Below are positions 29,855-63,561 of a stretch of 64,000 nt of DNA, in pieces. Where the stretch lies: positions 1-64,000 of the IMG/VR virus record IMGVR_UViG_3300030330_003269, one strand, 5' to 3'. How positions within the stretch are numbered: position 1 is the stretch's first letter; each line of letters opens with the position of its first letter. Origin of the DNA: a virus. Lineage: Duplodnaviria; Caudoviricetes. The notes beneath the pieces were generated by a model that had not been told where the DNA came from, searched no databases, and saw only the letters and a list, made by a program, of their open reading frames with translations. A program made the translations under genes and the position numbers.

Positions 29855-30157
29855 TTATTCGCCTTCTTCTAATGGTTCTATATCTTCCAAATGTCGGTAT
29901 TCCCTAAGAACCCGTTCTACAATGCTCATATCGTTCCCAAAACCACCAGCGTAATATATTTCTTGTTGTCTTGCTAAGAAATCATCTTGATGGTCTTCGC
30001 AGAAATGATGAGGTTTGTGTGGTAATCTTTTTGTTCTCATCATATCAGCAATAACTTCCCCAGGCCCATCAATATAACTAACATCAGGATTTGCTTGATT
30101 TTTACAACCCTTAATTTTGCACTTACCTGCATACTTTTTGATAATTCCTTTCCACAT
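29855..30157 (-). CDS. WxxIIK-tagged hypothetical protein with Cys/His residues
   Basis: Starts MWKGIIKK; CKIKGC...FCEDH. Confidence 0.6.
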   Translation of the reverse strand: MWKGIIKKYAGKCKIKGCKNQANPDVSYIDGPGEVIADMMRTKRLPHKPHHFCEDHQDDFLARQQEIYYAGGFGNDMSIVERVLREYRHLEDIEPLEEGE

Positions 30158-30162
30158 AATAA

Positions 30163-31464
30163 TCAATCCAAGAAATATACAATATCGCCCTTGCCTTTCA
30201 AAATATCCATCGCTTCTTTTTTAAGAATATCATATTTTTCTTTAGCACCAATATTAGCACCTGTTTCCGCAATCAAAACACTTTGGTCATCCATTCTAAT
30301 AATTTCTGCCGCAACAAGTTTTGTTGTGGCTTCGTGAATAGCAGATGGAACTCTATTATCACCAGCAATATATGAAACGATAACTGAATTGTTGGTATGA
30401 TATGGGTAGTCTCTCAAAAAGAAAATACGCCCTTCTTCTCCAATTGTCCAATAAGAACCAAGTCTTTTCAAATCTTCTTTATCAGTAAATACTGTCAAAT
30501 CACAAACAGAAGGAATCAAATCCTCCGTTGAAAATGTAAGAGTATTTGTTCCCGAAGCAGTTGCCGCAGTATCTAAAACCACAGTTGTTAAATTTGTAAT
30601 TGATTCAATCGCAACCGTTCCAGTAATACCTGTTCCCGATACAATCATACCTACGGCTAATTTAGACGAATCAGCAACAGTAAGAGTCTTTGAAGTGTTT
30701 GTTGTCGTGCATGACTGTTTTATGGTCGCCTTGATGGTGCAATCAGACCCATCATCCCCCATCAAGAGGGATGAAATGAAAATCTCCTTGCCGTTTTCCT
30801 TGTTCTTGGCGGCATAGAAAAAGTCAGAAATGGAGAGATTAGAAGAAGTGAGGCTTTTTGGAGCAGTTGCGCCTGTAAATTGAGAAGCACTTGGAAACGA
30901 TTCATTCACTAAAGAGATAATTTCTGCAACAGTTGTTTTTGCTCCAAATGTATTACAAAATTCATCATTGGCTAAATCAGTCAATGTATTCTCAGCCACC
31001 ATTTCAAAACTTACTCCACTATCGGGCAGTTGAAGAATAATAGAATGTAAGTCTCTAAAGTTGTCAAGTAGTCTAATTTTGGCTTGGGCTGAAGCAATCT
31101 CTTCATATTGACTTCCCTGCCAAAGTTGTAGTGAAATAATTTTACGAACTTTCATTTGTTTAAGTTGAATAAATCCAACATAGCCACCATAGTATTGAGC
31201 ATTTGGCCCTCTCGTAAATTCAAAGTTATGGTATTCATCTTTTGTAATGATAGGTCTAAATGAACGCTTTACTTTATCATCAACAATACCTTCTGTTCTT
31301 TTGATGATTGCTCCAACCTGTGCAGTTGTTGGATAAGTTGTTGCTGAAAAGTCTGGTATTTGAAGAAGGTCTGCTACTTCATTCGCATTTGTGTAAAAAC
31401 CTCTACCTTGCGTATAGTCTGGATTGATTTCAGTAAAATCGCTTGGTGAGATTGTTGTTCCCAT
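30163..31464 (-). CDS. Head-tail adaptor-like protein with inserted beta domain
   Basis: YTNANEVADLL N-terminus and VSYIAG...VPSAIHEATTKLVA C-terminus (gp15/gp6-type adaptor pattern). Confidence 0.65.
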   Translation of the reverse strand: MGTTISPSDFTEINPDYTQGRGFYTNANEVADLLQIPDFSATTYPTTAQVGAIIKRTEGIVDDKVKRSFRPIITKDEYHNFEFTRGPNAQYYGGYVGFIQLKQMKVRKIISLQLWQGSQYEEIASAQAKIRLLDNFRDLHSIILQLPDSGVSFEMVAENTLTDLANDEFCNTFGAKTTVAEIISLVNESFPSASQFTGATAPKSLTSSNLSISDFFYAAKNKENGKEIFISSLLMGDDGSDCTIKATIKQSCTTTNTSKTLTVADSSKLAVGMIVSGTGITGTVAIESITNLTTVVLDTAATASGTNTLTFSTEDLIPSVCDLTVFTDKEDLKRLGSYWTIGEEGRIFFLRDYPYHTNNSVIVSYIAGDNRVPSAIHEATTKLVAAEIIRMDDQSVLIAETGANIGAKEKYDILKKEAMDILKGKGDIVYFLD

Positions 31465-31465
31465 T

Positions 31466-32977: not shown

Positions 32978-32986
32978 CTTTTAGCC

Positions 32987-33634: not shown

Positions 33635-33636
33635 AT

Positions 33637-34973: not shown

Positions 34974-35483
34974 CTAAAAATATTTATCTAACATTTTCTT
35001 TAAATGTTCTTGGACTCTTAACTCATCAAAACTTAACACCGCTGAATCCCTCAATGCCTCTATTACTTCGGTTTTTATACTGTTATATTCTAAATTACTC
35101 AGTAATTCCTTTCCTAGTTCTTTAACTCTTGAATCGGGTAAATATTTGTATTCTACATCACCATCAAAATATCCTAGTCTTCCCCTTGGAGTTGTGTCTC
35201 TTTGGCTACTTGTTATTCCATATTCATTATCATAGTCAAGAAATTTATTTTCTTTTGTAGGTATTGTTTGTTTTATCATAGGTTTAGAAATGTCTTTTAA
35301 TTCATCTGCCTTTGAGCCAAAAAATGCATAAATTAGTGCTTCTGTTAATCTTGGTGTCCAATATCCAGTATCTTCATCACCTTGAGAACCTTGAAATAAT
35401 CTATTAAATCTCCAAGACCAATCCCTTGAATATTCTTCATCTGTTTCAATAATATATGGTTTTTTCAAAATGTTCCACCACAT
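34974..35483 (-). CDS. WxxILK-tagged hypothetical protein
   Basis: Starts MWWNILKK; GYWTPRLTEALIYA. Confidence 0.65.
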   Translation of the reverse strand: MWWNILKKPYIIETDEEYSRDWSWRFNRLFQGSQGDEDTGYWTPRLTEALIYAFFGSKADELKDISKPMIKQTIPTKENKFLDYDNEYGITSSQRDTTPRGRLGYFDGDVEYKYLPDSRVKELGKELLSNLEYNSIKTEVIEALRDSAVLSFDELRVQEHLKKMLDKYF

Positions 35484-37417: not shown

Positions 37418-38767
37418 TCAAAGAAGGTTGGTAATCTTTCCTTGACCCTTGAAGTAAGAACAGCCCATTTCACCAATTGTTCGGTAAAGAGCCTTGTTTC
37501 CAAGACGGCCAACACCGAATGGGTTTCCATTGGAAATACCATCCTCAAAGTATTGAGTTGGCTTCATAACCGACAACCAAAGGTGGTCAGTATCAAGAAG
37601 CAACATATCGCTGATACAGGAAGTATTTGCACCCGTTGAAGGCATAGCGGCAACAGGAATCAAAGGAATGTCGTAATAGGTAGAAACACGGAAACCGACT
37701 TCTGCACCCTTAACACCACGAACACCGTTCACGGTTGGAACGATTTCCTTTCTGTCCATGAATCGCTCTTGAGCCTGAAGCAAGTCAGAAAGCGTTTGAA
37801 GCGTATCATATCCAGTAAGAATGACCTTTGGCGAACCACCAGCAATTCTCAAATCACGAAGCATGGAGTTAAGCACAGTCAAGGTAAATTGACGAGCATT
37901 TCCACTTGCATAGCCAGAGCCGAAAGAAACAGCAGAATCAAGGAAAGAAGCCGAATCACGGTTTGTTCCGTAAAGATGGCTAATTTCATCAGTAGTTGCC
38001 GAAGAAATCAAAACGGTTCCAGAAGCCATAGCATCCAATTCTGCCTTAGAAGAAATAATCTTGTAAAGAGAAGTGTAGTTGCGCTCAATCAGAGAAATTT
38101 GGTTGGTAGCATTCAAATCGTAGTTTTCAAGAGGCATAACAAGCATAGCATTCTGCACTTCAGAATGATGCTTACCCATGTCTTCTCTCAATTGAGCACG
38201 AATATCACCGATGCCATCATCAATAGCCGCCATTTCCATAGCAAGTTCCGAGAACTCAAATTGATGAGCAATAATCTTGGGACTCGTAAAGAGTTGAGTG
38301 TAAGTTGGAGCAATTGAAGCCAAACCGTCTTGATGGGTGTCTAAAGCCGCATTTTCGGGAACACCACCGATAAGGTCAGGACGCAAAGCCGCCGCACCAA
38401 TGTTAGCCGCACTACCAGCGATATTAACGCCAGTCAAATCAAGGAAATTACCGCTACCACCAGCAGGTCGCTCCTTTAGGACTCTCCAACCACTTGAAGT
38501 GTAAGGTCGCTTTGAAATAACCGAAAGTGCGTTGCATTCACGGTTCAACATAGACCAGACCTTTTGGCCGTAAATTTTGTTATAAAGAGCAGTAGTGTCG
38601 GAAATAGCACTAAAGCCATTTGCGGCGGTTCCTGCAACATCATGTCCAGCATGAATACCAGCAACACCGCCCGCTTGCTTAAGCAATTGGTTGTTAAGGC
38701 CAGTATGACCAGTCAATCCGTAAGTTTGTCTTTCTAAGTCTGCAATTGTGTTAATATATCCTGTCAT
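37418..38767 (-). CDS. Major capsid protein (HK97 fold)
   Basis: Follows the prohead protease; YGQKVWSMLN, PKIIAHQFEFSE, GFRVSTYYDIPLIP, LLLDTDHL, QGKITNL. Confidence 0.88.
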   Translation of the reverse strand: MTGYINTIADLERQTYGLTGHTGLNNQLLKQAGGVAGIHAGHDVAGTAANGFSAISDTTALYNKIYGQKVWSMLNRECNALSVISKRPYTSSGWRVLKERPAGGSGNFLDLTGVNIAGSAANIGAAALRPDLIGGVPENAALDTHQDGLASIAPTYTQLFTSPKIIAHQFEFSELAMEMAAIDDGIGDIRAQLREDMGKHHSEVQNAMLVMPLENYDLNATNQISLIERNYTSLYKIISSKAELDAMASGTVLISSATTDEISHLYGTNRDSASFLDSAVSFGSGYASGNARQFTLTVLNSMLRDLRIAGGSPKVILTGYDTLQTLSDLLQAQERFMDRKEIVPTVNGVRGVKGAEVGFRVSTYYDIPLIPVAAMPSTGANTSCISDMLLLDTDHLWLSVMKPTQYFEDGISNGNPFGVGRLGNKALYRTIGEMGCSYFKGQGKITNLL

Positions 38768-38778: not shown

Positions 38779-40008
38779 TCAGTTAAATCCTCCAGCCATT
38801 TTATGAATCTCCGACCAATCCATCTCGGCCAATTCATCCATAGTTGGGAGTTTGATTTGGGCTTCTTCTTGAGCCTTAATAATTTGGTTCTTCTCAGCCG
38901 TCAAGGACTTGCGAAGAGAAGCAAATTCATTCTTAAGAGAAGCAATTTCGGAAGCCGCATCATATTGCGACTTTGCGAGGATGTTCTCTCTTTGGGAAGT
39001 TTCAGCCTTAAAGCGAGCCTCAAACTGCTTTTGAAGGTTGTCATAAGCCAACTTCTCCAATTGTTCTTGACGGAAAGCATCGTAAGCCTTCTCAATGTTA
39101 GCAACGCTCAAATCAAGCGTTTCTAACTCATCGTTGTTAAATGCCTTAACAACAGGAAGGTCGCTGGCTCTTGGCTTGCCGTTGTCAATAACGATTCTGT
39201 CGGCAGGTTCACCGATTTCAACGCCAGCACCATCAAGGGTAGAAAGAAGGGCTTTTGCCTCTTCATCACGATACATCTTTTCATCCTCATCCATGAGTTT
39301 TTCGGACATCATCTTTTCATCTTCGTCCTCCATTTTCTCATCCATGAGTTTTTCAGACATCATCTTTTCATCCTCATCTTCCATCTTTTCGTCCATTTCT
39401 TCCTTACGCAGAGTATTAACCTCTGCCATAAGTGCGTCCAGTTCTTCTAAAGCCTTTTCAATTTTGCTCATGTTTTTCACCTTTTTTTCTTGTTTAAGAA
39501 TATCAAACTTTGCTTCGGGGTTAATTCCTTTTTCACAGATAGTAACTTCATGTAATTCAAGTTTGCTAATTTCGTTAAATTCACCTAATTCTGGATTAGT
39601 CTTCTTTGTTTTTTGTAAAGCCTGTCCTCCAATACTAAATGACCTAAGCGAACCTTTTCTAATTCCTCTATTAATTTCCTTTGCTTTTTCAATATCATCT
39701 CTTAATTTGATTACCACAAAGAATCCAACATCATCAACTTCAGTTTTCCACAACTTTCCGTTTTTGTCTCGGTATGATTTTACTACTTCTCCAACTTGAA
39801 CATTTGAATGATTAGTCATTACATTTCTAAACTTGGGGTTTTCCATGTATTTTTCAACTGCTTCCTCCAATGCTTTGAGTGTGATTAAATCATTTTGCTT
39901 ATCAACGATTTCAATGCTTGCATATCCTCCAATCATTAAATCGTCGCTTTTTAGAATCCTGAAATCTTGAGTGTTGTTCATCATCACCGAGGAAGTCATT
40001 CTTCTCAA
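38779..40008 (-). CDS. Prohead protease (HK97/S78-type) fused to scaffold
   Basis: IGGYAS..VDKQND, catalytic H (MTNH), SFSIGG (Ser), LHEVTIC..GINP; acidic coiled-coil C-terminal half. Confidence 0.9.
   Translation of the reverse strand: MRRMTSSVMMNNTQDFRILKSDDLMIGGYASIEIVDKQNDLITLKALEEAVEKYMENPKFRNVMTNHSNVQVGEVVKSYRDKNGKLWKTEVDDVGFFVVIKLRDDIEKAKEINRGIRKGSLRSFSIGGQALQKTKKTNPELGEFNEISKLELHEVTICEKGINPEAKFDILKQEKKVKNMSKIEKALEELDALMAEVNTLRKEEMDEKMEDEDEKMMSEKLMDEKMEDEDEKMMSEKLMDEDEKMYRDEEAKALLSTLDGAGVEIGEPADRIVIDNGKPRASDLPVVKAFNNDELETLDLSVANIEKAYDAFRQEQLEKLAYDNLQKQFEARFKAETSQRENILAKSQYDAASEIASLKNEFASLRKSLTAEKNQIIKAQEEAQIKLPTMDELAEMDWSEIHKMAGGFN
39274..39396 (-). repeat. 51-bp tandem repeat in the scaffold (MDEKMEDEDEKMMSEKL x~2.4)
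   Basis: ctcatccatgagtttttc(g/a)gacatcatcttttcatc at 39286 and 39337. Confidence 0.85.
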
Positions 40009-40028: not shown

Positions 40029-40036
40029 TATATAAA
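40029..40036 (-). promoter_or_regulatory. TATA-box-like late promoter upstream of the protease-capsid operon
   Basis: TTTATATA on the - strand in the ligase/protease gap, about 20-30 nt before the start. Confidence 0.45.
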
Positions 40037-40042
40037 GAACAC

Positions 40043-42565
40043 CTATTCGTTGGTAGGAATGGGCAACTTGTTATACCTATCTTCGTAAATGTTCCACTTT
40101 CCTGTGTCCGAGTCGGTGTCTGCTGGCTTTTGTTTATATCCAGTCCAAGCAAGCCACATTCTTTCTCCTTTAACAGGAATGACTCTAATATGTAATTTAG
40201 TTTCAAACTTATTCCCTTCTAAGAAATATTCATGATAGCCATCTTTTTGAACACCAAGTTTGATTTTACCAGAATCAATGACTTTTCCTCTTTCAACATT
40301 CTTTGAAACTTCTGCTGGATATTTACCAGCCGCTCCGAATAAATCAAAGAGTTCTTCTTCATTCTCTAAATCAATAGTCCAATGCATTACTTCATCTTCA
40401 ACTTTAATGCTCAAGTGAACTCTATTATCCTCTCTAGCATAGATTTTAAAATTACCTTCTTGGTATTCTTTTGGTGTTTTGTATTGTTTTATGATTTCTT
40501 CATTTTGTAAAATTACATCGGGGTCTGCGTGTAGTTTTCCATTAACCATAGAAAGGTGTTCTCTTTCTTGCGCCCAACTGCCTAACTTAGATTGCTTAGA
40601 ATCCAAAATATCTTCATAAGTTTCCTTCATGTTTCTCATTAAGAAATCATGAACATCTTTAACACTTCTATCTCCTTTTTCTTGCAAATAATTAACAATA
40701 GAAACAGTAAGTTTTCCTTGCTTTGTTTTCATAATTTCTTCTGCTTGAGTTTTCCAAAGGTCAATGTCTTGTAAAGCATTCTTTGACATTAGATTATTTT
40801 CTTCAAAACCATAGATAGTAAATCCATTCATGTCATACTTGATAATAGCATTGGCTTCTCCATGAATATGGTCTGTAATTTTAACTCCTTTCGTAAAGGC
40901 TTCAACATCATAGTTTAGAGATTTTTTAGTATCTTGAGATAATAGTTCTAAAGTGACTAGTTTATCTGGGTGTTCAACCTCTGGAACTTCAATTACTTTA
41001 GCAGAGAATAAACTATACCCTTCACCTTTCTTTTTAACTTCATCCACTTTTACTCTAATAATATCCCCAACATCAACAGAAATCTTAGTGTTCAATGCTT
41101 TTCCTACATTTAAATACATTCTTCCTTCAATTTCTTGAAGGTTCTTCATTTCTTCATTAATTGGGCCGATACCTACTGTATAGGAATATAATTTAGATTT
41201 TGTTTTAGATTTGTCTAAAACGATAACATCTAAATCAACAAATTTCTTTAACTTAATCCACTTCGGATTCTTTTTTGTTCCTACATAATAAGTTGAAGTA
41301 GCGTCTTTAATAACTACTCCCTCAGATGTTGGCATTTGCATAATCTGTTCAGCGTATTCTTTTAAGTCCTTTAGACTGTCTGCCTGACGAGTATCTTTCT
41401 TTGAAGGAAAATCAATTGCTTCGGAAGATTTAGAAGAATAGTTATTGAATAGAGTTGTCATTCTCACTTCAAGTTCTTCTTCCATCATATTTTGAGATTC
41501 ATGTCTCATAATATCAAAAACATGACACCTTAGTTTAGCATCTTTATATTTATTTTTAAATACATGAGCGATAGTATCTGCACGATGAAGAGGTTCATCA
41601 CCATCAAACAAGATTAGTTCCGCATCAAGAATACAATCACCATATTCCTTTTTCTTAAGTTCTTCAACCTGTTCTTTACATTTATCAGTAATATCCTTTT
41701 CATTATAAGAAAAGACCTTAATGTTATTATCAATCTTATGTAATTGAACTCTCATGCCATCATATTTTTCTTGAATATACCAATTGCCACTAAATCCTTT
41801 CAATTCATTAATGTCATCAATTTCAAAAATTCTATACATGGGTTTATTTGGAATAATAAAATCACTTTGTGCTTTTTTCTCGGAAGACTTCTTTTCTTCC
41901 TTTTTCATATCAATATCTTTAAGTTCTTCAAATTCTTTTTCTGTGTTTTGAGAAAGCATAATTAATTCTAACATATCCATAGCGGCCTTTACTTTTGATT
42001 CAACCTTCTTTGAGTCTTTTCCATCCCCGTAATGCTCCGTAATGTAGAGGGCCACATCGTCCACTTCTAGGTCAAGTCCTTGAAGACCCGCCGTAATTCG
42101 GTCAGGTTCCATGTCTTTAATGCTCAAAACCTCTTCGGAAAGCGTTTTATTGTCGTCTCTTATAGCATAATGAACAAATTTAACCATTGATTCAGGATTA
42201 GTCATTAATTCTTCCAAGACTCCATCACCAAAGGAAGCGGCGAAGGGGTCGGCCACCAGCGACGAAGTATAGCGAATTAATTTTATTTTCTTGTAAAGTT
42301 CCTTTGCTTGAGGAGATTTAGGGTCTTTTGCTTCCTTAGCATCTAAGTCCTTCTCGTCAATAAAGTTTTTTAATTCTTTTCCAGCAGCATCTAATTCTTC
42401 ATATGATTCCCTAATCATATCAACTGCTTTACGCCAACGACCCCCGTATTCATCGGGGTCTTCATTAGCAGATAAATAAGCAACTCTGGTCTTTTCAAAA
42501 AGACGAAGCAGTTCAACAGAAGGCTGCTTATCTTTCTCAATTGACCCAAGTTTCATTGATACCAC
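40043..42565 (-). CDS. lig: ATP-dependent DNA ligase with N- and C-terminal extensions
   Basis: Motif I EKYDGMR, III ILDAEL, IIIa VFDI, IV EGVVIK, V WIKLK, and an OB domain. Confidence 0.9.
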   Translation of the reverse strand: MVSMKLGSIEKDKQPSVELLRLFEKTRVAYLSANEDPDEYGGRWRKAVDMIRESYEELDAAGKELKNFIDEKDLDAKEAKDPKSPQAKELYKKIKLIRYTSSLVADPFAASFGDGVLEELMTNPESMVKFVHYAIRDDNKTLSEEVLSIKDMEPDRITAGLQGLDLEVDDVALYITEHYGDGKDSKKVESKVKAAMDMLELIMLSQNTEKEFEELKDIDMKKEEKKSSEKKAQSDFIIPNKPMYRIFEIDDINELKGFSGNWYIQEKYDGMRVQLHKIDNNIKVFSYNEKDITDKCKEQVEELKKKEYGDCILDAELILFDGDEPLHRADTIAHVFKNKYKDAKLRCHVFDIMRHESQNMMEEELEVRMTTLFNNYSSKSSEAIDFPSKKDTRQADSLKDLKEYAEQIMQMPTSEGVVIKDATSTYYVGTKKNPKWIKLKKFVDLDVIVLDKSKTKSKLYSYTVGIGPINEEMKNLQEIEGRMYLNVGKALNTKISVDVGDIIRVKVDEVKKKGEGYSLFSAKVIEVPEVEHPDKLVTLELLSQDTKKSLNYDVEAFTKGVKITDHIHGEANAIIKYDMNGFTIYGFEENNLMSKNALQDIDLWKTQAEEIMKTKQGKLTVSIVNYLQEKGDRSVKDVHDFLMRNMKETYEDILDSKQSKLGSWAQEREHLSMVNGKLHADPDVILQNEEIIKQYKTPKEYQEGNFKIYAREDNRVHLSIKVEDEVMHWTIDLENEEELFDLFGAAGKYPAEVSKNVERGKVIDSGKIKLGVQKDGYHEYFLEGNKFETKLHIRVIPVKGERMWLAWTGYKQKPADTDSDTGKWNIYEDRYNKLPIPTNE

Positions 42566-43097: not shown

Positions 43098-43339
43098 TCC
43101 ATTCCTTTGACCATCTTATGAATGTCAGACCACTCCATGTCTCCGACATTCTTCCCTAATACGGAATCTCCACCAATAACAGATTCCATAACAGGTGTTG
43201 GACTATTTGATACAACAAAACCTGCTTTCATAAGCAGACTGTCTTTAGCATAAATTGTTTTTTCTAATGCTTCAACCTTTGCAGTTAAAGCCTTGATAAT
43301 TTCAAGCATATCTTCATTAATTGAATTTTCTTCACTCAT
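43094..43339 (-). CDS. Small scaffold-like protein with C-terminal WSDIHK motif
   Basis: Coiled coil, then DMEWSDIHKM, matching the scaffold C-terminus EMDWSEIHKM. Confidence 0.7.
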   Translation of the reverse strand: MSEENSINEDMLEIIKALTAKVEALEKTIYAKDSLLMKAGFVVSNSPTPVMESVIGGDSVLGKNVGDMEWSDIHKMVKGME

Positions 43340-51745: not shown

Positions 51746-53176
51746 TCAAAAGTTCAAGCCTATGGAGTTCATTCTTTGCGGGTTTTGACCTCCGCCGCCA
51801 TCGTCAAATAACCCCAAATCATCTAAGAGAATAAACGCTTCGGAGGCTTGATAGGTGGCGGCATTCGCTAAGGCAAGACTCATCACCATGTCGTCATGCG
51901 CCCCGATTCCCTCAAATTTCCCTCGCTCAGTAATCGCAAACATTGACATTTCTTCAATCAATATGGATGAAACCCTCCTACTCTCTTCGTTCCCATAAGG
52001 GAAATTGATTTTACCGTTTTCAAGTGTCATTTGTAAATTGAGAATAATCTCTTGTTTCTTTCTTCGTGTCGTATCAAAGTCATGAACATTTAAATCTGCA
52101 ACTTGACGAAGTTCTTGAGTAAATGATTTTGCAAATGTATTTGTTTCAAATAAGATAACTTCGGGTCGGAACAATTGACCAATCAATTTTACCTTCTGTA
52201 TGTTCTCTCGGAATTGAACATTTTTAGACCTATCAACATAGACAATAGATTTATTTTCATCTTCATCCATTTCAATAACAGTAATCACATTGTAGTCGCC
52301 ATCTGTTGAAATAGCGGGGTCTACACCAACAAAGTATTTATATCCGTCTCTTCTCAAAGGTTTTAAAACTAAGTCTTTATTCTTTGCATTATCTAAATGT
52401 TCGGGATTAAAGAGAGAAGTTCCTGTTGAAATAGGCACACACATATATTCCCGTGTGAACATCAATGAACCTACTTCTGCCTTACGAGCCATTAACGCTT
52501 CATAGTTCCATCGGTCAGGCCATAACGGTTCGTTTAATGCATTTAAACATGGGTATGTTCTAACGGTATAAGCAGCATTTTCTGATAACTGCTGATAAAT
52601 ATCTGTATAACTGAACGGCGTTCCAATAACACGCAAAGATGCAGTATGGTGAAGTGTAGGAATCATATCACCATAAAACCAATCAGTCACTTTTTGAATA
52701 CCAGTCATACTAAACTCTTTCAAAGGGTCGTCAATGATAATTTCTTGAGGGTGCAGACCACGAATCTGTGAACCAACAGAACGCTCAAGGATTTGATTTC
52801 CATTTGTTAATGTAATGTTTCCAATAGCCCAACCTCTTGCGGGTTTGAATTTCTTGAGCATTGGGTGGGTGAACATCTTATCAATATCTCTCATGTGAAC
52901 GAGAGTCTGCTTTTGGTTAGAAGAAATATAAAGCATTTGATATGGTGGCTCTTCAAAAATAAGTTTCCATACAACCCATGAATGCATAAAAACAGATTTA
53001 CCGTGGTCACGACTACAAATGATAACTGTTCTTTGTGTCTCATTCATTAACTGATGCCATTCTTGAATATAAGAAGGAAAGTCAAAACCAAGCACATTTT
53101 GGAAAAAATACGGAAAAGAATTTTTGGACAGGCGCATATCCATCTCATGTTCAAAATTAAACGCCTCCACTTCCAT
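51746..53176 (-). CDS. terL: Terminase large subunit
   Basis: Walker A SRDHGKS, IRGLH, Walker B IIIDD, GTP motif, nuclease GVDPA...ETN...HDDMVMSLALA. Confidence 0.95.
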   Translation of the reverse strand: MEVEAFNFEHEMDMRLSKNSFPYFFQNVLGFDFPSYIQEWHQLMNETQRTVIICSRDHGKSVFMHSWVVWKLIFEEPPYQMLYISSNQKQTLVHMRDIDKMFTHPMLKKFKPARGWAIGNITLTNGNQILERSVGSQIRGLHPQEIIIDDPLKEFSMTGIQKVTDWFYGDMIPTLHHTASLRVIGTPFSYTDIYQQLSENAAYTVRTYPCLNALNEPLWPDRWNYEALMARKAEVGSLMFTREYMCVPISTGTSLFNPEHLDNAKNKDLVLKPLRRDGYKYFVGVDPAISTDGDYNVITVIEMDEDENKSIVYVDRSKNVQFRENIQKVKLIGQLFRPEVILFETNTFAKSFTQELRQVADLNVHDFDTTRRKKQEIILNLQMTLENGKINFPYGNEESRRVSSILIEEMSMFAITERGKFEGIGAHDDMVMSLALANAATYQASEAFILLDDLGLFDDGGGGQNPQRMNSIGLNF

Positions 53177-53182: not shown

Positions 53183-54022
53183 TCACTCCTCTTTGCCCAT
53201 AGTCCAATAAGTAGTTCTTAAAATAGGAGAGGTGCTAGACAGACCATAAAGACTGACATTACCTTTAACACCCTGCTTAGCCTTTGGATAATAACCATAT
53301 TTTCTCATAAGTTTAGTATAAGGCATAAATGTCATATGATTATCTTTTATTCTTCTTAATTGTGCCTTTTCTGAATGATTTCCATATGCGATAATAAGTT
53401 CTCGGTATTCTTTTGCAATTCTTTTCATTAGGTCTTTATTTTCAATACCCTTTCCGTCTAAATCTTCCACAATTTTTCTTACTGCTGCTTTAATAAATTG
53501 AAAATTATATTTTTTTTTAAGAATAGAAAACCAACTGGCCTGTTTATGAATCATCCACTTTTGAACTTGGTCTGCATAAGTTAATCCTTCTAAATCTTGT
53601 TGAGAATCTTCAGGAAGTTCACTAATATTCATATCACCGAACCCTCTATTTCTATATGTGTTAGCAATTTTATCATTCGCAATATTCACATATAAAGTAT
53701 TAGAACCCTTTTCTGCAATAATCTTATCAACTAATATTCCCGAAAGACCCCGACCTCTAAACTCATCTCTTACATGAATACCTGCGCCAAGCAACTTACC
53801 CTTGTGTTTTGAAAATCCAATCACACCAACTGGTTTATCTTCATAATAAGCAACAAACATTGTTGCAGGAGCAGTAGCCCAAGAAGAATCACGGGACATT
53901 GAACGATAGCGCATTCTTCTTTTTTGATAATCAAAATAGCCATCGTCTTGAAAAGCCTTTACTGCATCATCCTCAGACATTTCTCTAAAGGAAATATCAG
54001 CAGCAGAAAACTTTGAAACCAT
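53183..54022 (-). CDS. GNAT acetyltransferase fused, via an internal WxxILK tag, to a second domain
   Basis: HVRDEFRGRGLS acetyl-CoA motif, YRNRGF; internal ASWFSILK. Confidence 0.8.
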   Translation of the reverse strand: MVSKFSAADISFREMSEDDAVKAFQDDGYFDYQKRRMRYRSMSRDSSWATAPATMFVAYYEDKPVGVIGFSKHKGKLLGAGIHVRDEFRGRGLSGILVDKIIAEKGSNTLYVNIANDKIANTYRNRGFGDMNISELPEDSQQDLEGLTYADQVQKWMIHKQASWFSILKKKYNFQFIKAAVRKIVEDLDGKGIENKDLMKRIAKEYRELIIAYGNHSEKAQLRRIKDNHMTFMPYTKLMRKYGYYPKAKQGVKGNVSLYGLSSTSPILRTTYWTMGKEE

Positions 54023-56608: not shown

Positions 56609-58606
56609 TCAGTCCTCCAGTAGTCCTTCTTCTTTAAATGCGTTAAGTGCTTTGGTTGTATTTTCTACATTTTTACCTGTCATGTATTTTTCATAATTTT
56701 CAGCAATATCTTTCATTTGGAATTCAAATGCCTTAATAATCGCATCTCGTATTCTTTTCAGATAATCAGGAATCTTTTTATCCAAGTCTTGAAGCCGTGA
56801 AGCGACCTCTTCGCTTTGCGGGTTGGCCTTCACGGACTTAAATACTTCCTTCGGGGTCATGTCATTTAATGCGTGGTCAGCCATTCTTGAAAGAAAAGAG
56901 ATAAAATTCTTTGGGTTTAACTGTTCAAGAGGACTTGCACCAACATCTTTAGAATTAATTAGTTTATCCATTTCATCTGCCTTTTGTTTTACAAATTCAG
57001 GGAAAGAAGAGCCTGTAATTAAATCTCTTACCTTGGGAATATTACTAAATTCTAAAACATCGTCAGGTATTTTTTCAATAATAGTATTTGGGGTTAAATT
57101 AAGTTTTCTTATTCCATCATCAAATGTTATTTGAACATAGAAAGCAAGGTCGCCCATCTCATCTTCTTCAACATTTTCTCCTGAATAATCAATATATTGA
57201 TACTCTAAGTCGTCAGCATCATATATCTTTTCAATAGTAGCCTTCAATTGTTTAAATTCAGAAACAGTAAAATAATCCTTCAAAAAGGTTAATTGTTGTC
57301 TTCTTGAGATATCTTTTGTATTACTAACTATATTTTTAATGTTTCTAGAGAGTCGCATTTGATTTCTTATTTCTTTTCTAACTGCCGTTCTTGCTGCTTT
57401 AGTATCTGTTCTGCTTTTATTTTCAACTAATTCATTAATAAAAGGCCTGACATTTACATTAAACTTACGAGAATTATCCTGTCCTAGAAAAATAGATTCT
57501 GTAATATCATCAATTACTTCTAATTCAGCCTCTCCATCAGTCTGTGTTTCATTAATACGAAATTCATTAAAGAAATTAGAAAACCAATCTTCTTTAAACT
57601 CAGTTTTAAGAATTAAAGAAGCCATAGGATTCAAGGCAACCGACTTAGCACCACTACCGCTTTTTGTTAAAAATAGCATATCTGGGACAGTTTCATCCTC
57701 TATATTTGGCCCTAAAGCACTTCTATCAAACTCTTTTGGAAGAAATTTGTCCTTTTTTCCAGCAAATTTGCCAGAATTAAGAACATCTATGAATTTAAAT
57801 ACATCGTTTGCATCAAATGTCGCTTTGGCTTTAAATTTTTTGTCAGAAATGAGGAAATTATCAGGAATTTTTGAAGATTTGCCTCCTTCAACAAAATTTA
57901 ACCCAACTGATTTCCTTTTTCCAAGAATAGGGGCAAAATGTTCGCTATAAAACTGTGAAACTCCAGAATCTCCACGAATTTTCTCTTGTAATTGAGTAAA
58001 ATTCTCAAAATCTGTTAAAATAATGTCTTCACTTAGTTCTCCACCGATGAGTTCAGCAAAAATTCTTAGTAAATTTTTGTTTTTTGGTGGATTTTTGAAG
58101 GTAATGTAGTTTTTTGCACCTAATGTGTTGCTTACAAACAAATATTTTTGTTGAAGTCTTGGCTTATTAGACCAAAATGCTAATTTTGTGTTATATTTTG
58201 GAGTATTTTTATTGAATTCAGAAAATTCTTGCTTGGCTTCATCGGGTTTTTTATTATTTATCAAATCTCTTATCATGTTTAGTTGAGAAATTGCTTCATT
58301 TTCTGATAAATACTTCTTATCTGGTTCAATTTCTGAAATAAGTTCTTTTAATTTATTAAATCTTTCAGTAAATTGTTCCAATGTTGCTTCGCCTGTATCA
58401 TATTCTTCATAATATTTTTCAGGAGCGTCCTTTAGAGCAGAAAGCGTCCCTCTCAAACTCTTTACGAATTTTTTCGAAGTCTTGATTCTATCTAAAATTG
58501 TATTGAAATTACCTTCATCCATTAAAGCAGGGAAGAGAAAGTAAGATGGCATATTATCTTCGGGGATAAACGGGAGAGGTTTCTTAATAATTGAAAACCA
58601 ACTCAT
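56609..58606 (-). CDS. Large WxxIIK-tagged hypothetical protein
   Basis: True start probably ATG 58606 (MSWFSIIKK), inside the 21-bp repeat that carries the RBS. Confidence 0.75.
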   Translation of the reverse strand: MSWFSIIKKPLPFIPEDNMPSYFLFPALMDEGNFNTILDRIKTSKKFVKSLRGTLSALKDAPEKYYEEYDTGEATLEQFTERFNKLKELISEIEPDKKYLSENEAISQLNMIRDLINNKKPDEAKQEFSEFNKNTPKYNTKLAFWSNKPRLQQKYLFVSNTLGAKNYITFKNPPKNKNLLRIFAELIGGELSEDIILTDFENFTQLQEKIRGDSGVSQFYSEHFAPILGKRKSVGLNFVEGGKSSKIPDNFLISDKKFKAKATFDANDVFKFIDVLNSGKFAGKKDKFLPKEFDRSALGPNIEDETVPDMLFLTKSGSGAKSVALNPMASLILKTEFKEDWFSNFFNEFRINETQTDGEAELEVIDDITESIFLGQDNSRKFNVNVRPFINELVENKSRTDTKAARTAVRKEIRNQMRLSRNIKNIVSNTKDISRRQQLTFLKDYFTVSEFKQLKATIEKIYDADDLEYQYIDYSGENVEEDEMGDLAFYVQITFDDGIRKLNLTPNTIIEKIPDDVLEFSNIPKVRDLITGSSFPEFVKQKADEMDKLINSKDVGASPLEQLNPKNFISFLSRMADHALNDMTPKEVFKSVKANPQSEEVASRLQDLDKKIPDYLKRIRDAIIKAFEFQMKDIAENYEKYMTGKNVENTTKALNAFKEEGLLED

Positions 58607-58617
58607 TGTAATCTCTC

Positions 58618-58896
58618 CTATTCCCACACCGAATCTGCCTTTCTAAGAGTCTTTCTAGGCTTAAATCTCAAGACATTGTTTCCTCTATCCAACTTACGCC
58701 CATACCCTGTTTGCTCTGCTAAAGACTCATCGGTGAAATATAGAAGTCTTCCTCCGAACAAGCGAATTAAGTAGTGGGTCTTTCCTTTCTCATTCGCTAG
58801 ATTTTGAACCATTTCTTTTGCTTCGCCAATAGCGACTCCATCCCTAATCGGGGTCATTTTGCTAGTATCAATTTTCAGTATATCTTCCCAACTCAT
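58618..58896 (-). CDS. Tagged cassette gene
   Basis: MSWEDILK. Confidence 0.75.
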   Translation of the reverse strand: MSWEDILKIDTSKMTPIRDGVAIGEAKEMVQNLANEKGKTHYLIRLFGGRLLYFTDESLAEQTGYGRKLDRGNNVLRFKPRKTLRKADSVWE

Positions 58897-58907
58897 TGTA
58901 ATCTCTC

Positions 58908-59237
58908 CTACACATTAAAAGGATTAAAGGGTTCTTTTTCTTCTTCTTCTTTTACAGGCTTATCCAAAAATTGACCGCCTGTGTATTTTGCTTCCTTTCT
59001 GGCTTTTTCTTCTCTTAGCCTTTTTTCTTCATTGAGTTTTTTAGTTTCTGCTGCTTTTTTATTAGCCTGTTGTCGTCTTTCAGGAGAAAGAGGTTTTCTT
59101 GGCTTATCAGCATATATTCTTCCAGGTTTTTTTGTTCTTAGAGCCTGTCTTTTTGTCGGGGATGCGCCATATTCTTTAAAATCAAAAGCATCACCTCTTC
59201 CTGCATATCCTCTTTTAATAATGTCCTGCCACTTCAT
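58908..59237 (-). CDS. Tagged cassette gene (basic)
   Basis: MKWQDIIK. Confidence 0.75.
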   Translation of the reverse strand: MKWQDIIKRGYAGRGDAFDFKEYGASPTKRQALRTKKPGRIYADKPRKPLSPERRQQANKKAAETKKLNEEKRLREEKARKEAKYTGGQFLDKPVKEEEEKEPFNPFNV

Positions 59238-59509
59238 TGTAATCTTTCCTGTATTCTAAAATCTTCTTGTCTGCTTAAACTGTTCAATAATTCAGTCATA
59301 TCAAAATCGGGGTTATCTAAATTCTCTTGAGTTAATTGATTAAGAGCATCATCAATTGTTTCTTCCAAAAGTTCTTTTTGTCTTTGGTATTCGGCCTCAA
59401 TAAACTCTTCTTGCATCTCTCTAAAAATAGCAATAGAATTGCTAATATCAGGATATTTATTAAAATCAATTTGATTTGGGTCTAGTTTCAAAATTTCTTC
59501 CCAACTCAT
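59234..59509 (-). CDS. Tagged cassette gene (acidic)
   Basis: MSWEEILK; ends QERLQ, encoded by the repeat. Confidence 0.75.
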   Translation of the reverse strand: MSWEEILKLDPNQIDFNKYPDISNSIAIFREMQEEFIEAEYQRQKELLEETIDDALNQLTQENLDNPDFDMTELLNSLSRQEDFRIQERLQ

Positions 59510-59526
59510 TGTAATCTCTCCTGCAT

Positions 59527-59706
59527 TTAAGCCTTAGTATTAGCCTCATCCAAGTATAACTCTAATACTTGGTCGGGAGCATTTTTATCATCTGTGCGAT
59601 ATACTCCTTTTTTTCCATCTTCTAAATATTCAACAACATAATATTCTATTCCATCATGTTTTATTTCTTTAGGGAAGTCTCCCTTTAGTATGCTTTTCCA
59701 ACTCAT
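59527..59706 (-). CDS. Tagged cassette gene, 59 aa (not in ORF track)
   Basis: MSWKSILKGDFPKEIKHDGIEYYVVEYLEDGKKGVYRTDDKNAPDQVLELYLDEANTKA. Confidence 0.75.
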   Translation of the reverse strand: MSWKSILKGDFPKEIKHDGIEYYVVEYLEDGKKGVYRTDDKNAPDQVLELYLDEANTKA

Positions 59707-60366
59707 TGTAATCTCTCCTGCATCTTCTGTTTAATATCCAGCCAAATCTCAGGATTGTTCTGTGCTAACACTTCTTGAACAATTTGCATTTGTGCGACAA
59801 TAATCGTGTCCTGTCTCTTGTGAATCAATTTACCCTTGAACTCCATAAGATACTTTAAAGATTCTCTAATCTCTTGCTAACTTGGTAAGAGCGTCAATCA
59901 TCTTAGGGTCAAGGTCATTCCCCAAATCGTTGAAGACTTGCTCTAAACGCATATCTAACTTTTGCACATTGTTTGAAAGCAAATCAACTTCATTTACTTC
60001 CTTTTTCGCCAGCATCATGGCGGCGGATTCCTGCACGATTGGCGTTAAGTGGTGTTTGATGTGCCTACGCACCTGCTCTTTTGTGGTGTTCAGCGCAGAA
60101 GAAACAGCCTCAATGGTGATATTACCTTCTTTAATCGCAAGTTCGTAGTGCTTCCTCATGGGGTCTGTGCATAGAACACAACGAGGATTTGACGACATTT
60201 CATAATTCCCCATGTGGTTTCTTTGATGTTGTGCGGCAGTTCCGCTTCTCCATCCATGTTGTGCATCCATATCATCACAAGTCATTGAACCCATCTCAAG
60301 AAGGGATTCCAACTCTTCTCGGTTGTCTGCTTGACAAAGACCACAACGCTTGCGATTAACTGTCAT
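59703..60366 (-). CDS. Tandem Zn-HTH protein with coiled coil (possible terminase small subunit), frameshifted near 59870
   Basis: Two CxxC...HxxxH units; the ORF stops at 59866 but continues in another frame as IRESLKYLMEFKGKL...KMQERLQ to TGA at 59703. Confidence 0.6.
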
Positions 60367-60701
60367 TATGGAGAACCCCTATAAAAAATGTCATGTCCTC
60401 TTGATAAGTTCACAAGCCCACTACGATACATCATAAATTCATCAGTTCCGATACTTTCTTCCATCAAATCTAATGTGCTTTGCATAGCAAGCCAAACAGT
60501 AGGCTCTTTTGCGATAATCTTGCTCTTATTTGCCATAATTTTTTCTTTTATGTCTTTAAATATTTTGGTATGTCTTTTAATCTCTTTACCAGTATTTACC
60601 ATATTTCTATTAAGGCTGGCTTCTTCCATATCTTCGGGAGCATATTTTTCTCCTAATCTACGGGCTTCATCCATATCAATCTTTAAAACCTCTTTCCACA
60701 T
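60366..60701 (-). CDS. Tagged hypothetical protein
   Basis: MWKEVLK. Confidence 0.75.
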   Translation of the reverse strand: MWKEVLKIDMDEARRLGEKYAPEDMEEASLNRNMVNTGKEIKRHTKIFKDIKEKIMANKSKIIAKEPTVWLAMQSTLDLMEESIGTDEFMMYRSGLVNLSRGHDIFYRGSP

Positions 60702-60702
60702 A

Positions 60703-61848
60703 TTATTTTCTCCATAAAACCTGTTGCCACATTTTAGAAATAACCTTTTGATTAGGATTCAACTTAAAGTCATCATGTTGATATGTATCTGGATATTTTT
60801 CTTTGGCTGTCTTTCTGTAATCAAAACCACCCCTTGTATCATTTTGCCACGCACGAAAACCATTCGGTGCTTTGTTAGTTCCTTTTCTTTTTAAGGCTCT
60901 ATCAACTAATTCAATAAAGACTTCTTTACCTACTGCTTTTGGAAATGAAACTATAGCAATATCACCAGCAATAGAATTATCTTCGTCTGCTGGCCCAAGT
61001 TTAGCCAGTTCTCTTGCGATGTTCTGGTCTTTATTGGTTAGTCTAAACTTTTGATTTTTAAAATCTGTTCTAACCTTATTAGTTAATAATCTACCACCTG
61101 CGTTCCAAAATGCATTATTACGAACAACTTTATTAAAGTAACTTTGAATTGAACTGAGGTCTTCTAATTCTTCAGCATCAATACCTGATAAATTTTCAAT
61201 GCCCAAGTCTTCAATTTCTGGCTTATCAATATCTTCTAAAATATGGAGAAGTCCTCTTGGTCTTGCGAACTTTGTTGAAGATTCTGAGAAAAGAGCCTGA
61301 TGTGGCGGATTTTTTCCAGCAAACCATTCATCGTCTGCCTTTGGCACTTTGTTCTTCTTTGCATAACTTTCGGTGGCATAATGTCCTTGGACTTTTCTTT
61401 CCTTTCTTTTCTGCTCACCTTCACCAACAGGTTTATCTGTGAATAAAATGAACGCAGGGTCAAATGCTGGAGACTTTTCACCAATAACATGACCAGTTCC
61501 TTTCATGCCCTTTAATGTCTTAGCAAGGGCTTTAATTGTTTTAATGTTTCCAGTAGTCAATAATTCATTATCAACAAAACCTTCAACTGCAGTCAAAATA
61601 TCAGCAACACCTTGACCTTCAACATCTTTATTTCTGCTTTTACTTCTTGCCTTTTTAATGTGTTGTTTAAGAAAAGCATATAATGATGGAACTCTTTGGA
61701 CTCTCATATCACCTGCGCTGACAGAAAGACAATTATCTCTCCATTCATTAAACTCTTCAACAAACCTTTCATTATCAAAGGTTTGGTCAAGAGAGTTTCC
61801 TTTATGTTTTTTTGGAGCCTTCTTTTTATCTTCAGGCATATTCTTCAT
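60703..61848 (-). CDS. Hypothetical protein ending in tag-like MWQQVLW
   Basis: 381-aa ORF. Confidence 0.7.
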   Translation of the reverse strand: MKNMPEDKKKAPKKHKGNSLDQTFDNERFVEEFNEWRDNCLSVSAGDMRVQRVPSLYAFLKQHIKKARSKSRNKDVEGQGVADILTAVEGFVDNELLTTGNIKTIKALAKTLKGMKGTGHVIGEKSPAFDPAFILFTDKPVGEGEQKRKERKVQGHYATESYAKKNKVPKADDEWFAGKNPPHQALFSESSTKFARPRGLLHILEDIDKPEIEDLGIENLSGIDAEELEDLSSIQSYFNKVVRNNAFWNAGGRLLTNKVRTDFKNQKFRLTNKDQNIARELAKLGPADEDNSIAGDIAIVSFPKAVGKEVFIELVDRALKRKGTNKAPNGFRAWQNDTRGGFDYRKTAKEKYPDTYQHDDFKLNPNQKVISKMWQQVLWRK

Positions 61849-62008
61849 CCTCCTTTTTCTTCTTTCGGCGGATTGCCTTTTGATTAAACATAGCAGGTGC
61901 AGAAGCGGTCGTTACTGCTCCAGCCATCTTTTCTTCTTCTTTTGCTGGAATAGGTTCGGGTGGATTTCTGTGATACTCACAGTATTTGAGAACATCTTTC
62001 CAACTCAT
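61832..62008 (-). CDS. Tagged small protein
   Basis: Start ATG 62008, MSWKDVLK. Confidence 0.65.
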   Translation of the reverse strand: MSWKDVLKYCEYHRNPPEPIPAKEEEKMAGAVTTASAPAMFNQKAIRRKKKKEDEEYA

Positions 62009-62115: not shown

Positions 62116-62117
62116 GT

Positions 62118-62303
62118 TTATTCCTCTTTCTTTTTTGCATCTTTAGCGGCTTCCTTCATAGGTTCGGTAGTGTTGCCATCTTTGTCCAAATCAATATAAT
62201 CTGGCTTTGCACCCTTCTTTTCAAACAATTGTTTTTCAAATCGTTTTTTCCTACAATCTTCACAATCACAATCGCCTTTACGAACAATGTCTTTCCAACT
62301 CAT
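62118..62303 (-). CDS. Tagged small protein with DxDxDG motif
   Basis: MSWKDIVRK; KPDYIDLDKDGN. Confidence 0.7.
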   Translation of the reverse strand: MSWKDIVRKGDCDCEDCRKKRFEKQLFEKKGAKPDYIDLDKDGNTTEPMKEAAKDAKKKEE

Positions 62304-62362
62304 AGATGCGACCTCAACCTAACCGATGTTTCTTGACCTTATCAACCTTGCTCACTTCATGT

Positions 62363-62950
62363 TCAAGCGTTGGCAAAGATTCTGCTAATGTCTCCTTCAA
62401 ACCTTTCATTTTCAAAAACTTCGTGAATAAAATGGTCATAGTGGTCAAGTAAATCAATAGAAAGATAAGCAACATATGTGCCTCCACCTTTGATATTAAA
62501 ATTCCCAGGAAGAAGGTCTGCACTAATTGATAAATGAAAAATATAGGTGTCTTCATCGGCACTAAAGCGAGAAAGCCCAAAATTACTGGTTGGGTGTTTC
62601 TTTAATTCCTGTAATATATAACAAGCGGCTTCTTCAGTTATATTATTAAAGGGTTCAAGTATTTTATTAAAAAGTCTATATCTTATATAAGTTTCATTTT
62701 CAGGTTCTCCTGTTTCAAAAACATATTCTCCTTCACCTAATGTTCTAAAGTCCTCAACTGGCATCTTTATATTTTTATAGGGATATCTAAAGTAATCTCT
62801 AAAATCAAGTTTAGTAAGAACATCTACCATTTTAATTAGGCGTTCCTTACAATTGTCTTCTTCTTCTATCATAGGCTGATTGAAGTCCAACTGAAAGGTT
62901 TTACCTTTTGTTGAAGCGATTTGATTTTTAATAATGCTCCACCAAGTCAT
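62363..62950 (-). CDS. Tagged paralog family member (constant N-terminus, variable body)
   Basis: MTWWSIIKNQIASTKGKTFQLDFNQPMIEEED. Confidence 0.8.
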   Translation of the reverse strand: MTWWSIIKNQIASTKGKTFQLDFNQPMIEEEDNCKERLIKMVDVLTKLDFRDYFRYPYKNIKMPVEDFRTLGEGEYVFETGEPENETYIRYRLFNKILEPFNNITEEAACYILQELKKHPTSNFGLSRFSADEDTYIFHLSISADLLPGNFNIKGGGTYVAYLSIDLLDHYDHFIHEVFENERFEGDISRIFANA

Positions 62951-63561
62951 AGTAATTCCTCAATTGTTTGTTTTAAATTTTTACTAAGCAAATAAATTTC
63001 TTTTCCTCTACCTGCTGTTCTGCTTTCTGTAAAGTAAATAGATAGTGAGATTAAAAAGCCGCAATAAGCACCGAGGTTTAAATCACGAATTTCAACACCA
63101 AAGTATATTGACATATTTCCTGGAACAACTTCATAATTTATTTTAGTCAGTCTTATTTTACTAAAATCTCTAAAATTAATTTTTAATGTATAATTATTAA
63201 ATTCTTCGTGTTTAGTTATATTATCAAATGCTCTTCTGTCCAACATCTCTAAGGCCTTGCAAAAAACTTCTTCGGGAATTTTATCTGTGTTTCCTATGTT
63301 ATGAGTATGATAACCTATAAGAACCCTTTTAAAATCAGGAAAGTCTGTTTCTATTTCCCATCGTTTTTTAGTGCTTTGTGAAGAACTCGTAGAAAGGATT
63401 GAAGTATCTGTTCTTTCGGCTTTATTTATTTTATCTATAATTTCAAAAAAGCGTTTTCTACAATCATCCTCTTCTTCAATCATGGGTTGATTGAAGTCTA
63501 ACTGGAAAGTTTTACCTTTAGTGGAGGCAATCTGGTTTTTAATAATACTCCACCAATTCAA
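62947..63561 (-). CDS. Tagged paralog family member
   Basis: MNWWSIIKNQIASTKGKTFQLDFNQPMIEEED. Confidence 0.8.
   Translation of the reverse strand: MNWWSIIKNQIASTKGKTFQLDFNQPMIEEEDDCRKRFFEIIDKINKAERTDTSILSTSSSQSTKKRWEIETDFPDFKRVLIGYHTHNIGNTDKIPEEVFCKALEMLDRRAFDNITKHEEFNNYTLKINFRDFSKIRLTKINYEVVPGNMSIYFGVEIRDLNLGAYCGFLISLSIYFTESRTAGRGKEIYLLSKNLKQTIEELL

Follow-up and report, generated by a model that had tools for sequence, protein, structure and literature searches.

Prohead proteases of the S78 kind act inside procapsids, and the protease of phage HK97 cleaves the coat protein after a lysine. The HK97 coat protein has an N-terminal delta domain and the phage has no fused scaffold; the C-terminal tail of its protease reportedly serves as an encapsidation signal, by an account of Duda and co-workers dating from 2013, and we know of no tagged cargo family in this phage. 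The prohead-protease site of phage T4 has the form hydrophobic-x-Glu. Encapsulin cargo-loading peptides are short, usually C-terminal and uncleaved, and load cargo into a shell of the HK97 fold, while the Dar proteins of phage P1 are capsid-loaded anti-restriction proteins that rely on protein-protein dependencies and not on one shared short motif. The internal proteins of T4 are a diverse, defence-countering set in which only the capsid-targeting sequence (CTS) is conserved (PMC3012670). The scaffold of Staphylococcus phage 80alpha and CpmB of SaPI1, a small protein unrelated to it, bind the coat protein through a common R-I-I-K motif, which is part of a C-terminal helix-and-hook (PMC5644958). 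Here we describe a short N-terminal peptide, M-x(0-2)-W-x-x-[IV]-[IL]-K (the tag), encoded by a tailed archaeal virus of the magrovirus kind. Its contig (IMG/VR record IMGVR_UViG_3300030330_003269) is terminally redundant and 96,765 bp long, and the first 64 kb of it form the window analysed here; positions are those of the window unless given as contig positions. The tag is a protein-level signal on unrelated, soluble and interchangeable accessory proteins that are encoded beside the head genes.

Replication genes of this virus are on the plus strand, and head and tail genes occupy the minus strand between about 68 and 15 kb. The tag stands at the start of 15 minus-strand genes in the window, and variants of it begin several more. 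All 15 of the strict N-terminal copies listed in a preliminary description of this DNA were recovered, as were the three variants named there (starts at 48481, 62303, and 47871). In the window, minus-strand coding frames contain the strict string W-x-x-[IV]-[IL]-K 16 times and all other frames together contain it once; 15 of the strict copies lie at most three residues from the start codon (seven residues in the PAP2 protein). Across the whole contig about 25 genes are tagged, variants included, in a series that reaches 68.3 kb (tagged starts beyond the window at contig positions 64385, 64980, 65489, 67327, 67900, and 68266), and none of them is on the plus strand. The earlier statement that no plus-strand gene has the strict motif holds in the window. 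Beyond it, one plus-strand core protein of 446 residues (contig 79475-80815) has an internal G-E-G-[KR]-W-D-K-[IV]-L-K near its N-terminus, with the copy at contig 79577; this internal copy is kept in six genomes and is the only conserved copy of the motif on the plus strand.

The tag is also concentrated in related viruses. Among 1101 genes from nine related genomes or contigs, called with a simple custom script that leaves some start codons uncertain, 128 N-terminal copies were seen against 0.07 expected from composition. All 128 are on the structural (head-gene) strand, confirming the N-terminal enrichment first noted in this window. Five related genomes contain 6 to 16 copies each of the back-translated pattern, essentially on one strand, and a control with the reversed pattern returned 0. 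An IMG/VR-wide scan for M-S-W-x-x-I-L-K found more than 118 stretches. Nearly all of those with at least two tags have homologs of core genes of the source virus or are on contigs of about 90 kb, and 36 stretches that have neither an N-terminal tag nor a kin gene look like chance matches. In 234 unrelated carriers, the tag reads M-[STN]-W-[EKQF]-[DNSE]-[IV]-[LI]-K, with Trp at position 3 in most of them; the search seed M-S-W skews the IMG/VR part of this sample toward Ser at position 2. Met, Trp, and Lys are the sole invariant columns, and nothing downstream of the tag Lys is conserved.

Codon usage within the tag places the signal in the peptide. Leu is encoded by TTA, CTA, CTT, TTG, CTG, and CTC, from both codon families, Ile by three codons, and Lys by both of its codons, and the two x positions vary, indicating that selection acts on the peptide. 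Upstream DNA is unrelated between most tagged genes. The exceptions are two local arrays with near-identical junctions of ribosome site and start codon. One (58592-59720) has five 14-nt ribosome-site junctions upstream of starts 58606-59706, followed by ATG-AGT-TGG (in one case ATG-AAG-TGG), and includes the gene at 56609-58606; the other, at contig 67327-68290, has its shared junctions at 67327-68266. These shared junctions suggest cassette duplication or exchange at junctions, which cannot account for W, I, L, and K being kept through synonymous change. A DNA-level signal is ruled out by the synonymous codon variation together with the differing upstream sequence outside the local arrays.

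Apart from the tag, the carriers have little in common. All fetched DNA pooled gave 422 distinct tagged proteins with a median length of 105 residues, and clustering of their bodies without the first 12 residues produced 234 clusters, 182 of them singletons, which rules out common ancestry of the carriers. Comparisons with Pfam and PHROGs gave almost no matches; 6 of 150 cluster representatives matched Pfam (DUF6321, PAP2, DUF5754, pentapeptide repeat, GNAT, and putative metallopeptidase). Transmembrane-like segments were detected in 5 of the 234 tagged proteins, compared with 37 of 262 untagged proteins from the same strand. With this low count, a length of eight residues and unbiased positions after the Lys, the tag does not have the features of Sec, Tat, or class III (prepilin) signals, namely a hydrophobic core of at least 10 residues, a twin arginine, or a [KR]-G cleavage site ahead of a hydrophobic helix. 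A membrane or secretion signal is ruled out on composition.

Tagged genes are also the ones that differ between close relatives. No homolog was found in any of four sister genomes for 15 of 22 tagged genes, compared with 4 of 43 untagged genes on the same strand (p = 2e-6). The untagged minus-strand genes are core genes, 31 of the 43 having homologs in all four sister genomes. The tag is present on 15 of the 19 strain-specific genes of the minus strand and on none of the 14 of the plus strand, indicating that it is not a general property of young genes. The preliminary description had called the tagged genes late genes; their location on the head-gene strand and their tight packing with head genes were confirmed, and lateness itself is an assumption.

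A sister lineage of viruses, with a protease about 45% identical, has a different leader on its proteins. No copy of the tag was found in five of its genomes of 86-107 kb. Instead, diverse proteins carry F-[DEN]-x-A-W-x-hydrophobic-L-K, which is N-terminal in 21 of 24 occurrences (loci L312-L328, in IMG/VR genomes G011, G013, and G015). G015 has six or seven clustered leader genes, and G011 and G013 have fewer. The G015 genes (3033-8361, minus strand) are on the head-gene strand and directly upstream of the structural block when the sequence is read around the permuted contig end. In this lineage, E-L-L-K is retained near residue 34 of the major capsid protein (MCP); its protease has kept L-L-K at the N-terminus, I-L-K at the junction that follows the protease domain, and the same C-terminal anchor on the scaffold. 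Homologs of the E1, JAB, and ubiquitin-like (Ubl) proteins of the source virus were not detectable in it, and it has no counterpart of the 665-residue tagged protein. The two leaders have in common a Trp and a final hydrophobic-L-K, and the two lineages have in common the head module.

Within that module, the closest likeness to the tag is at the end of the scaffold. The prohead protease (Peptidase_S78; 38779-39981, minus strand) is fused to a helical, acidic scaffold domain that ends in a conserved M-D-W-S-E-I-H-K-M, and a scaffold-like core protein of 81 residues (43094-43339, minus strand), with an N-terminal helix and a conserved I-I-K at residue 16, ends in the same anchor peptide. We derived a tag profile from 87 tags found in other genomes and scored 28,757 non-N-terminal positions of the source genome with it; the true internal tag of a GNAT protein ranked first, followed by the C-termini of the 81-residue protein and the protease-scaffold in second and third place. 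A phmmer search of 1.84 billion representatives located the anchor in nearer lineages of the protease family, for example as M-S-W-E-E-V-H and M-S-W-D-E-I-H, and the contig of one of these lineages has it on both the protease and a small protein. Two anchor variants (P0112 and P0033) have Tyr in place of Trp; no relative of P0029 was found in IMG/VR. In an AlphaFold model of the protease-scaffold (92-sequence alignment, mean predicted local distance difference test (pLDDT) score 81.5, most of the protease domain above 95), the anchor is modelled as a terminal helix at residues 389-396. At the level of sequence, the N-terminal half of the tag resembles this C-terminal motif of the protease-scaffold.

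The end of the tag has a different counterpart. In minus-strand core proteins, 12 hydrophobic-hydrophobic-Lys sites are invariant across five genomes, compared with 2-4 for control third residues and 5 on the plus strand. They include K30 of the HK97-type MCP (37418-38767, minus strand), protease K11, K163 at the domain junction, K369 in the scaffold, K16 of the 81-residue protein, and K15 of a 121-residue core protein (43336-43701, minus strand), which begins with M-T-W and has a conserved F-I-L-K at residues 12-15, a "split" tag. The N-x-L-L-K of the MCP (residues 26-30) is invariant in 37 relatives. Among 110 diverse homologs of the protease, the junction reads G-x-N-x-x-A-x-F-[DE]-[IL]-L-K. 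The Lys is present in 93 of 102 homologs that continue for at least 40 residues and in 0 of 5 that end within 15 residues (p = 2e-5), and the residue after it is A, S, G, or Q. In the AlphaFold model, the stretch F-D-I-L-K (residues 158-163) forms the final beta strand of the protease domain and is followed by a low-confidence linker. The protease matches both Peptidase_S78 and S78_2, and a search by sequence found no solved structure for it. Neither the MCP nor the protease of HVTV-1, whose MCP (about 25% identity) is the nearest from a cultured virus, shows a comparable motif, and the AlphaFold model of the MCP, from a shallow alignment, is unusable for placing K30 (pLDDT 34). The I-L-K end of the tag resembles these conserved MCP and protease sites, which look like prohead-protease sites.

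The likeness to the scaffold tail, combined with an end like the likely head-protease sites, suggests that the tag is probably a removable capsid-loading label. Our favored reading, in which we place about even confidence, is a capsid-interior targeting peptide that would be removed by the prohead protease and would work in the manner of the T4 CTS. This is close to the capsid-loading role proposed in the preliminary description, which is partly supported by the protein-level signal on unrelated, soluble, interchangeable proteins and by the likeness to scaffold C-terminus and candidate protease sites; encapsidation, cleavage after the Lys, and delivery to the host are inferred. The leader would serve as a lineage-specific N-terminal address and propeptide for a large, rapidly exchanged set of soluble accessory proteins. 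Its i, i+3, i+4 spacing suggests a short amphipathic turn that would place W, I, and L on the same side. Its first half (M-x-W-x-acidic/polar-I) would copy the C-terminal helix by which the protease-scaffold and the small scaffold-like protein presumably dock inside the coat shell, and the leader could then take the scaffold-anchor site on the procapsid interior. Its last residues, [DEN]-I-L-K, would copy the apparent processing sites of coat protein, protease, and scaffold, and the encapsidated S78 protease would cut after the tag Lys as it apparently does in the MCP, in itself, and in the scaffold. The freed cargo would remain in the head and exit with the DNA into the next host cell, as T4 internal proteins do. 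Procapsid binding, cleavage, packaging, and delivery are all predicted steps. A broader and more tentative proposal, to which we give somewhat less than even confidence, is a programmable capsid-cargo code, in which a scaffold docking helix joined to a protease site would allow any soluble protein to be packaged, released in the head, and injected, with hundreds of effector families in use and distinct codes in the sister lineages.

Comparison with T4 is the most direct. As with the CTS of IPI-III and Alt and the polymorphic internal-protein locus of T-even phages, an N-terminal leader of about 10 residues is the sole common feature of diverse, rapidly exchanged proteins, many of which are small and basic. 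The T4 leader ends in the prohead-protease motif, and the magrovirus tag ends like the candidate protease sites. Unlike the T4 leader, it has a hydrophobic-hydrophobic-Lys end, its genome encodes a Peptidase_S78 protease and not one of the gp21 type, the host is archaeal, and packaging and cleavage are predicted; the repertoire is also far larger, with about 25 carriers per genome and at least 234 families. Given the S78-type protease and the different motif, the magrovirus system would be an analogue of the T4 system and not a member of it.

The scaffold end finds its parallel in 80alpha. As with the 80alpha scaffold protein and CpmB, the scaffold and a second small protein, here of 81 residues, share a C-terminal helix. 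The element of 80alpha that docks to its coat is a short amphipathic helix with hydrophobic-hydrophobic-Lys after it; comparable docking to the magrovirus coat is a prediction. The magrovirus motif differs in being Trp-based, and its accessory copies are N-terminal and not C-terminal. HK97 has a protease of the same superfamily (Peptidase_S78) and, like the magrovirus, a conserved Lys at candidate coat processing sites, but the magrovirus protease has a fused scaffold and is accompanied by a family of tagged proteins. A targeting role for the C-terminal tail of the protease would be a further point in common. Encapsulin peptides and the N-terminal regions of P1 Dar proteins are also short terminal elements on unrelated proteins, and the magrovirus leader may load its carriers in a comparable way; unlike the encapsulin peptides, it is N-terminal and putatively cleaved.

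Several results weigh against capsid loading and proteolytic removal. The P0021 lineage, whose protease is 48% identical, combines the anchor L-S-W-E-E-V-N with the same tag (contigs L115 and L162), the sister lineage (lineage B) combines the same anchor with a different leader, and G006 has lost the anchor Lys and kept the tag Lys. With the same anchor beside different leaders and different anchors beside the same leader, tag and anchor do not co-vary beyond W-x-x-hydrophobic. The enrichment of hydrophobic-hydrophobic-Lys sites is modest after allowing for the abundance of Lys (p ~0.005). At the junction, F-D-I-L is modelled as a structural beta strand, so that cleavage alone would not account for its conservation; K163 is at least 90% conserved, on par with the catalytic residues, which suggests that part of the conservation is structural. 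The residue after the tag Lys (N, E, R, A, S, or K) is far more variable than at the core sites. The missing co-variation also fits a leader that docks to, or is processed by, a partner other than the capsid, either as a cytoplasmic propeptide that activates or times effectors or as a helix that recruits them to a viral or host hub, in both cases without encapsidation. Such a partner would explain the protein-level, module-specific signal equally well, and the true internal copies, which indicate that a free N-terminus is not required, are in its favor. Against it, the tag specifically resembles the C-termini of scaffold and 81-residue protein, a hydrophobic-L-K end recurs in two lineages that have the head module in common, and proteases of this kind do their work inside procapsids; we regard such a partner as unlikely, with a low but appreciable probability.

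The remaining alternatives fare less well than capsid targeting on the same evidence. Recombination at junction repeats comprising ribosome site, start, and first codons could leave a leader that is a by-product of cassette turnover with no function of its own. The near-identical junctions of the arrays at 58606-59706 and contig 67327-68266 fit this, as does the status of tagged genes as the most rapidly exchanged genes, but upstream DNA differs outside the arrays, and W, I/V, L/I, and K are fixed while synonymous codons vary. Orthologs at 20-28% identity retain the tag, as do protease lineages of only 48% identity, internal copies exist, and plus-strand strain-specific genes are never tagged, all of which makes a by-product quite improbable. 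The string W-x-x-[IV] could also be read as a motif similar to an LC3-interacting region or Atg8-interacting motif (LIR/AIM) that binds a viral Ubl protein, or the Lys as a conjugation site, linking the tag to a Ubl/E1/JAB module. The contig does encode E1-like and JAB proteins, both core across the five close genomes, and the tag matches the pattern [WFY]-x-x-[LIV]. That pattern is too loose to be diagnostic, however; the 68-residue Ubl candidate has no BLAST match in four close genomes that all have tags, and the sister lineage has a leader ending in hydrophobic-L-K without detectable E1, JAB, or Ubl. A connection of this kind therefore appears very improbable. Equally hard to credit is a host sorting, export, or stability signal of Poseidoniales borrowed by the virus, given that the tag has eight residues and no hydrophobic core, twin arginine, or prepilin-type site, that its carriers are depleted in membrane-like segments, and that a sister virus lineage has a different leader.

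We found no mention of an N-terminal motif or leader in the magrovirus papers examined, and a literature search on capsid targeting in archaeal viruses found nothing relevant. The system would work like the T4 CTS but is non-homologous to it, with another protease family, in archaeal viruses, and with a far larger repertoire; we found no published description of it. Even as an observation alone, the finding that at least 234 unrelated families begin with one leader of 8 residues, and that a sister lineage has another, defines a molecular address that is clear and open to testing. If it directs proteins into the capsid, abundant archaeal viruses of the ocean would bring along with their DNA a large and rapidly evolving arsenal of ready-made proteins, and the logic of T4 internal proteins would have arisen independently in archaeal viruses with a different protease family. 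The tag would then lead to the genes with which these viruses counter the defences of uncultured Poseidoniales, its sequence alone would identify virion cargo in metagenomes, and as a minimal peptide it could be used to load foreign proteins into a shell of the HK97 fold. Were the cargo code correct in full, no prokaryotic virus would be known to deliver a larger repertoire of proteins from its virion, and none would have been described before for archaeal viruses.

The tagged genes are interspersed with the head and tail genes of the minus strand, on which all features of this and the next paragraph are located. The tail tube gene (27510-29141) is followed by a genome-specific, Cys-rich tagged protein of 100 residues (M-W-K-G-I-I-K; 29855-30157) and a genome-specific one of 169 residues (M-W-W-N-I-L-K; 34974-35483). 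Beyond the MCP and protease-scaffold genes, the head gene block includes an ATP-dependent DNA ligase gene (40043-42565) and the portal gene (45947-47584). Next to the portal is a cluster at 47.6-50.0 kb in which several tagged proteins are very basic, with net charges of +12 to +25. It begins with a 77-residue protein with the degenerate tag M-K-W-K-D-F-T-K (47638-47871), whose ortholog in G001 begins M-S-W-R-Q-L-K, and a tagged protein of 113 residues with a TTG start and a net charge of +25 (47868-48209). A basic protein of 91 residues with six Cys (48206-48481) has the variant S-W-E-E-I-L-Q-K and an uncertain start codon, and its orthologs in G002 and G004 have the strict tag. The cluster continues with a 96-residue protein with a confirmed DUF6321 domain (M-N-E-W-Q-E-I-L-K; 48822-49112), a basic protein of 103 residues (M-I-E-W-K-N-I-L-K; 49117-49428), and a 196-residue protein (49421-50011) with Trp at residue 8. 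The PAP2 identity given to the last of these in the preliminary description was upheld by a domain match; a hydrophobicity test found no transmembrane-like segment in it, and its G004 ortholog begins M-N-W-F-S-I-L-K. Just upstream of TerL (51746-53176), a variable gene (53183-54022) encodes a GNAT acetyltransferase domain (residues 25-131), the internal tag A-S-W-F-S-I-L-K at residue 164, and a C-terminal part of 116 residues. The gene in this position has internal tags in G002, G004, and G007 as well, at residues 147-193. This internal copy had been reported correctly in the preliminary description; a second one given there, L-W-F-E-E-L-K, is in no called protein.

The only core tagged protein has 665 residues and no known domain (56609-58606). 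In four related genomes its orthologs are 20-28% identical and still carry the tag or one of its variants; no usable match came from the ESM Atlas, and a word-based homolog search returned only relatives of at least 78% identity. Four small tagged genes follow in the array (58618-58896, 58908-59237, 59234-59509, and 59527-59706), and farther along are tagged proteins of 111 residues (M-W-K-E-V-L-K; 60366-60701) and 58 residues (M-S-W-K-D-V-L-K; 61832-62008) and a Cys-rich protein of 61 residues with the variant M-S-W-K-D-I-V-R-K (62118-62303). The genes starting at 62950 and 63561, described earlier as a pair of paralogs, are indeed related, but both belong to a family of five, the first three members of which are at 62363-62950, 62947-63561, and 63558-64385, the last extending past the window. 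Members of this family have in common the tag and a further conserved stretch of about 25 residues, and their bodies are divergent.

Judged by the MCP, which is about 25% identical, haloarchaeal tailed viruses are the closest cultured relatives of the source virus; IMG/VR contains hundreds of close relatives, several of them on contigs about 95 kb long. One gene is found at both ends of the source contig (154-549 and contig 96344-96739), which indicates terminal redundancy and fits a complete genome with either circular permutation or terminal repeats. MCP and protease-scaffold genes are also present on two magrovirus-like contigs (L102 and L103; GenBank NZMJ01000024 and NZMJ01000101) that are binned in a metagenome-assembled genome labelled Maricaulis sp., probably through a binning error.

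The ATP-dependent DNA ligase domain makes up residues 255-440 of the 837-residue ligase protein (40043-42556, minus strand), and the sister-lineage equivalent of this gene also matches the metallo-beta-lactamase fold and, faintly, Anti-Pycsar Apyc1. A TTTATATA box at 40036 (minus strand), in the 61-nt gap 5' of the protease-scaffold gene, is a candidate promoter of the protease-MCP pair in a block that is otherwise nearly gap-free. The palindrome ACCATATGGT has seven copies at contig 68.4-72.2 kb, just upstream of the tagged array and each close to an ACC-N-TATA box; none of the genes around these palindromes is tagged. Between the small array and the next tagged gene, at 59703-60366 (minus strand), a core protein resembling zinc-ribbon and helix-turn-helix proteins is split into pieces of 166 and 41 residues. 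It is a single open reading frame of 220 residues in relatives, and the split is a frameshift or an assembly error. In those relatives, its C-terminus is W-L-D-I-K-K-[KR]-M, which also matches W-x-x-I-x-K.

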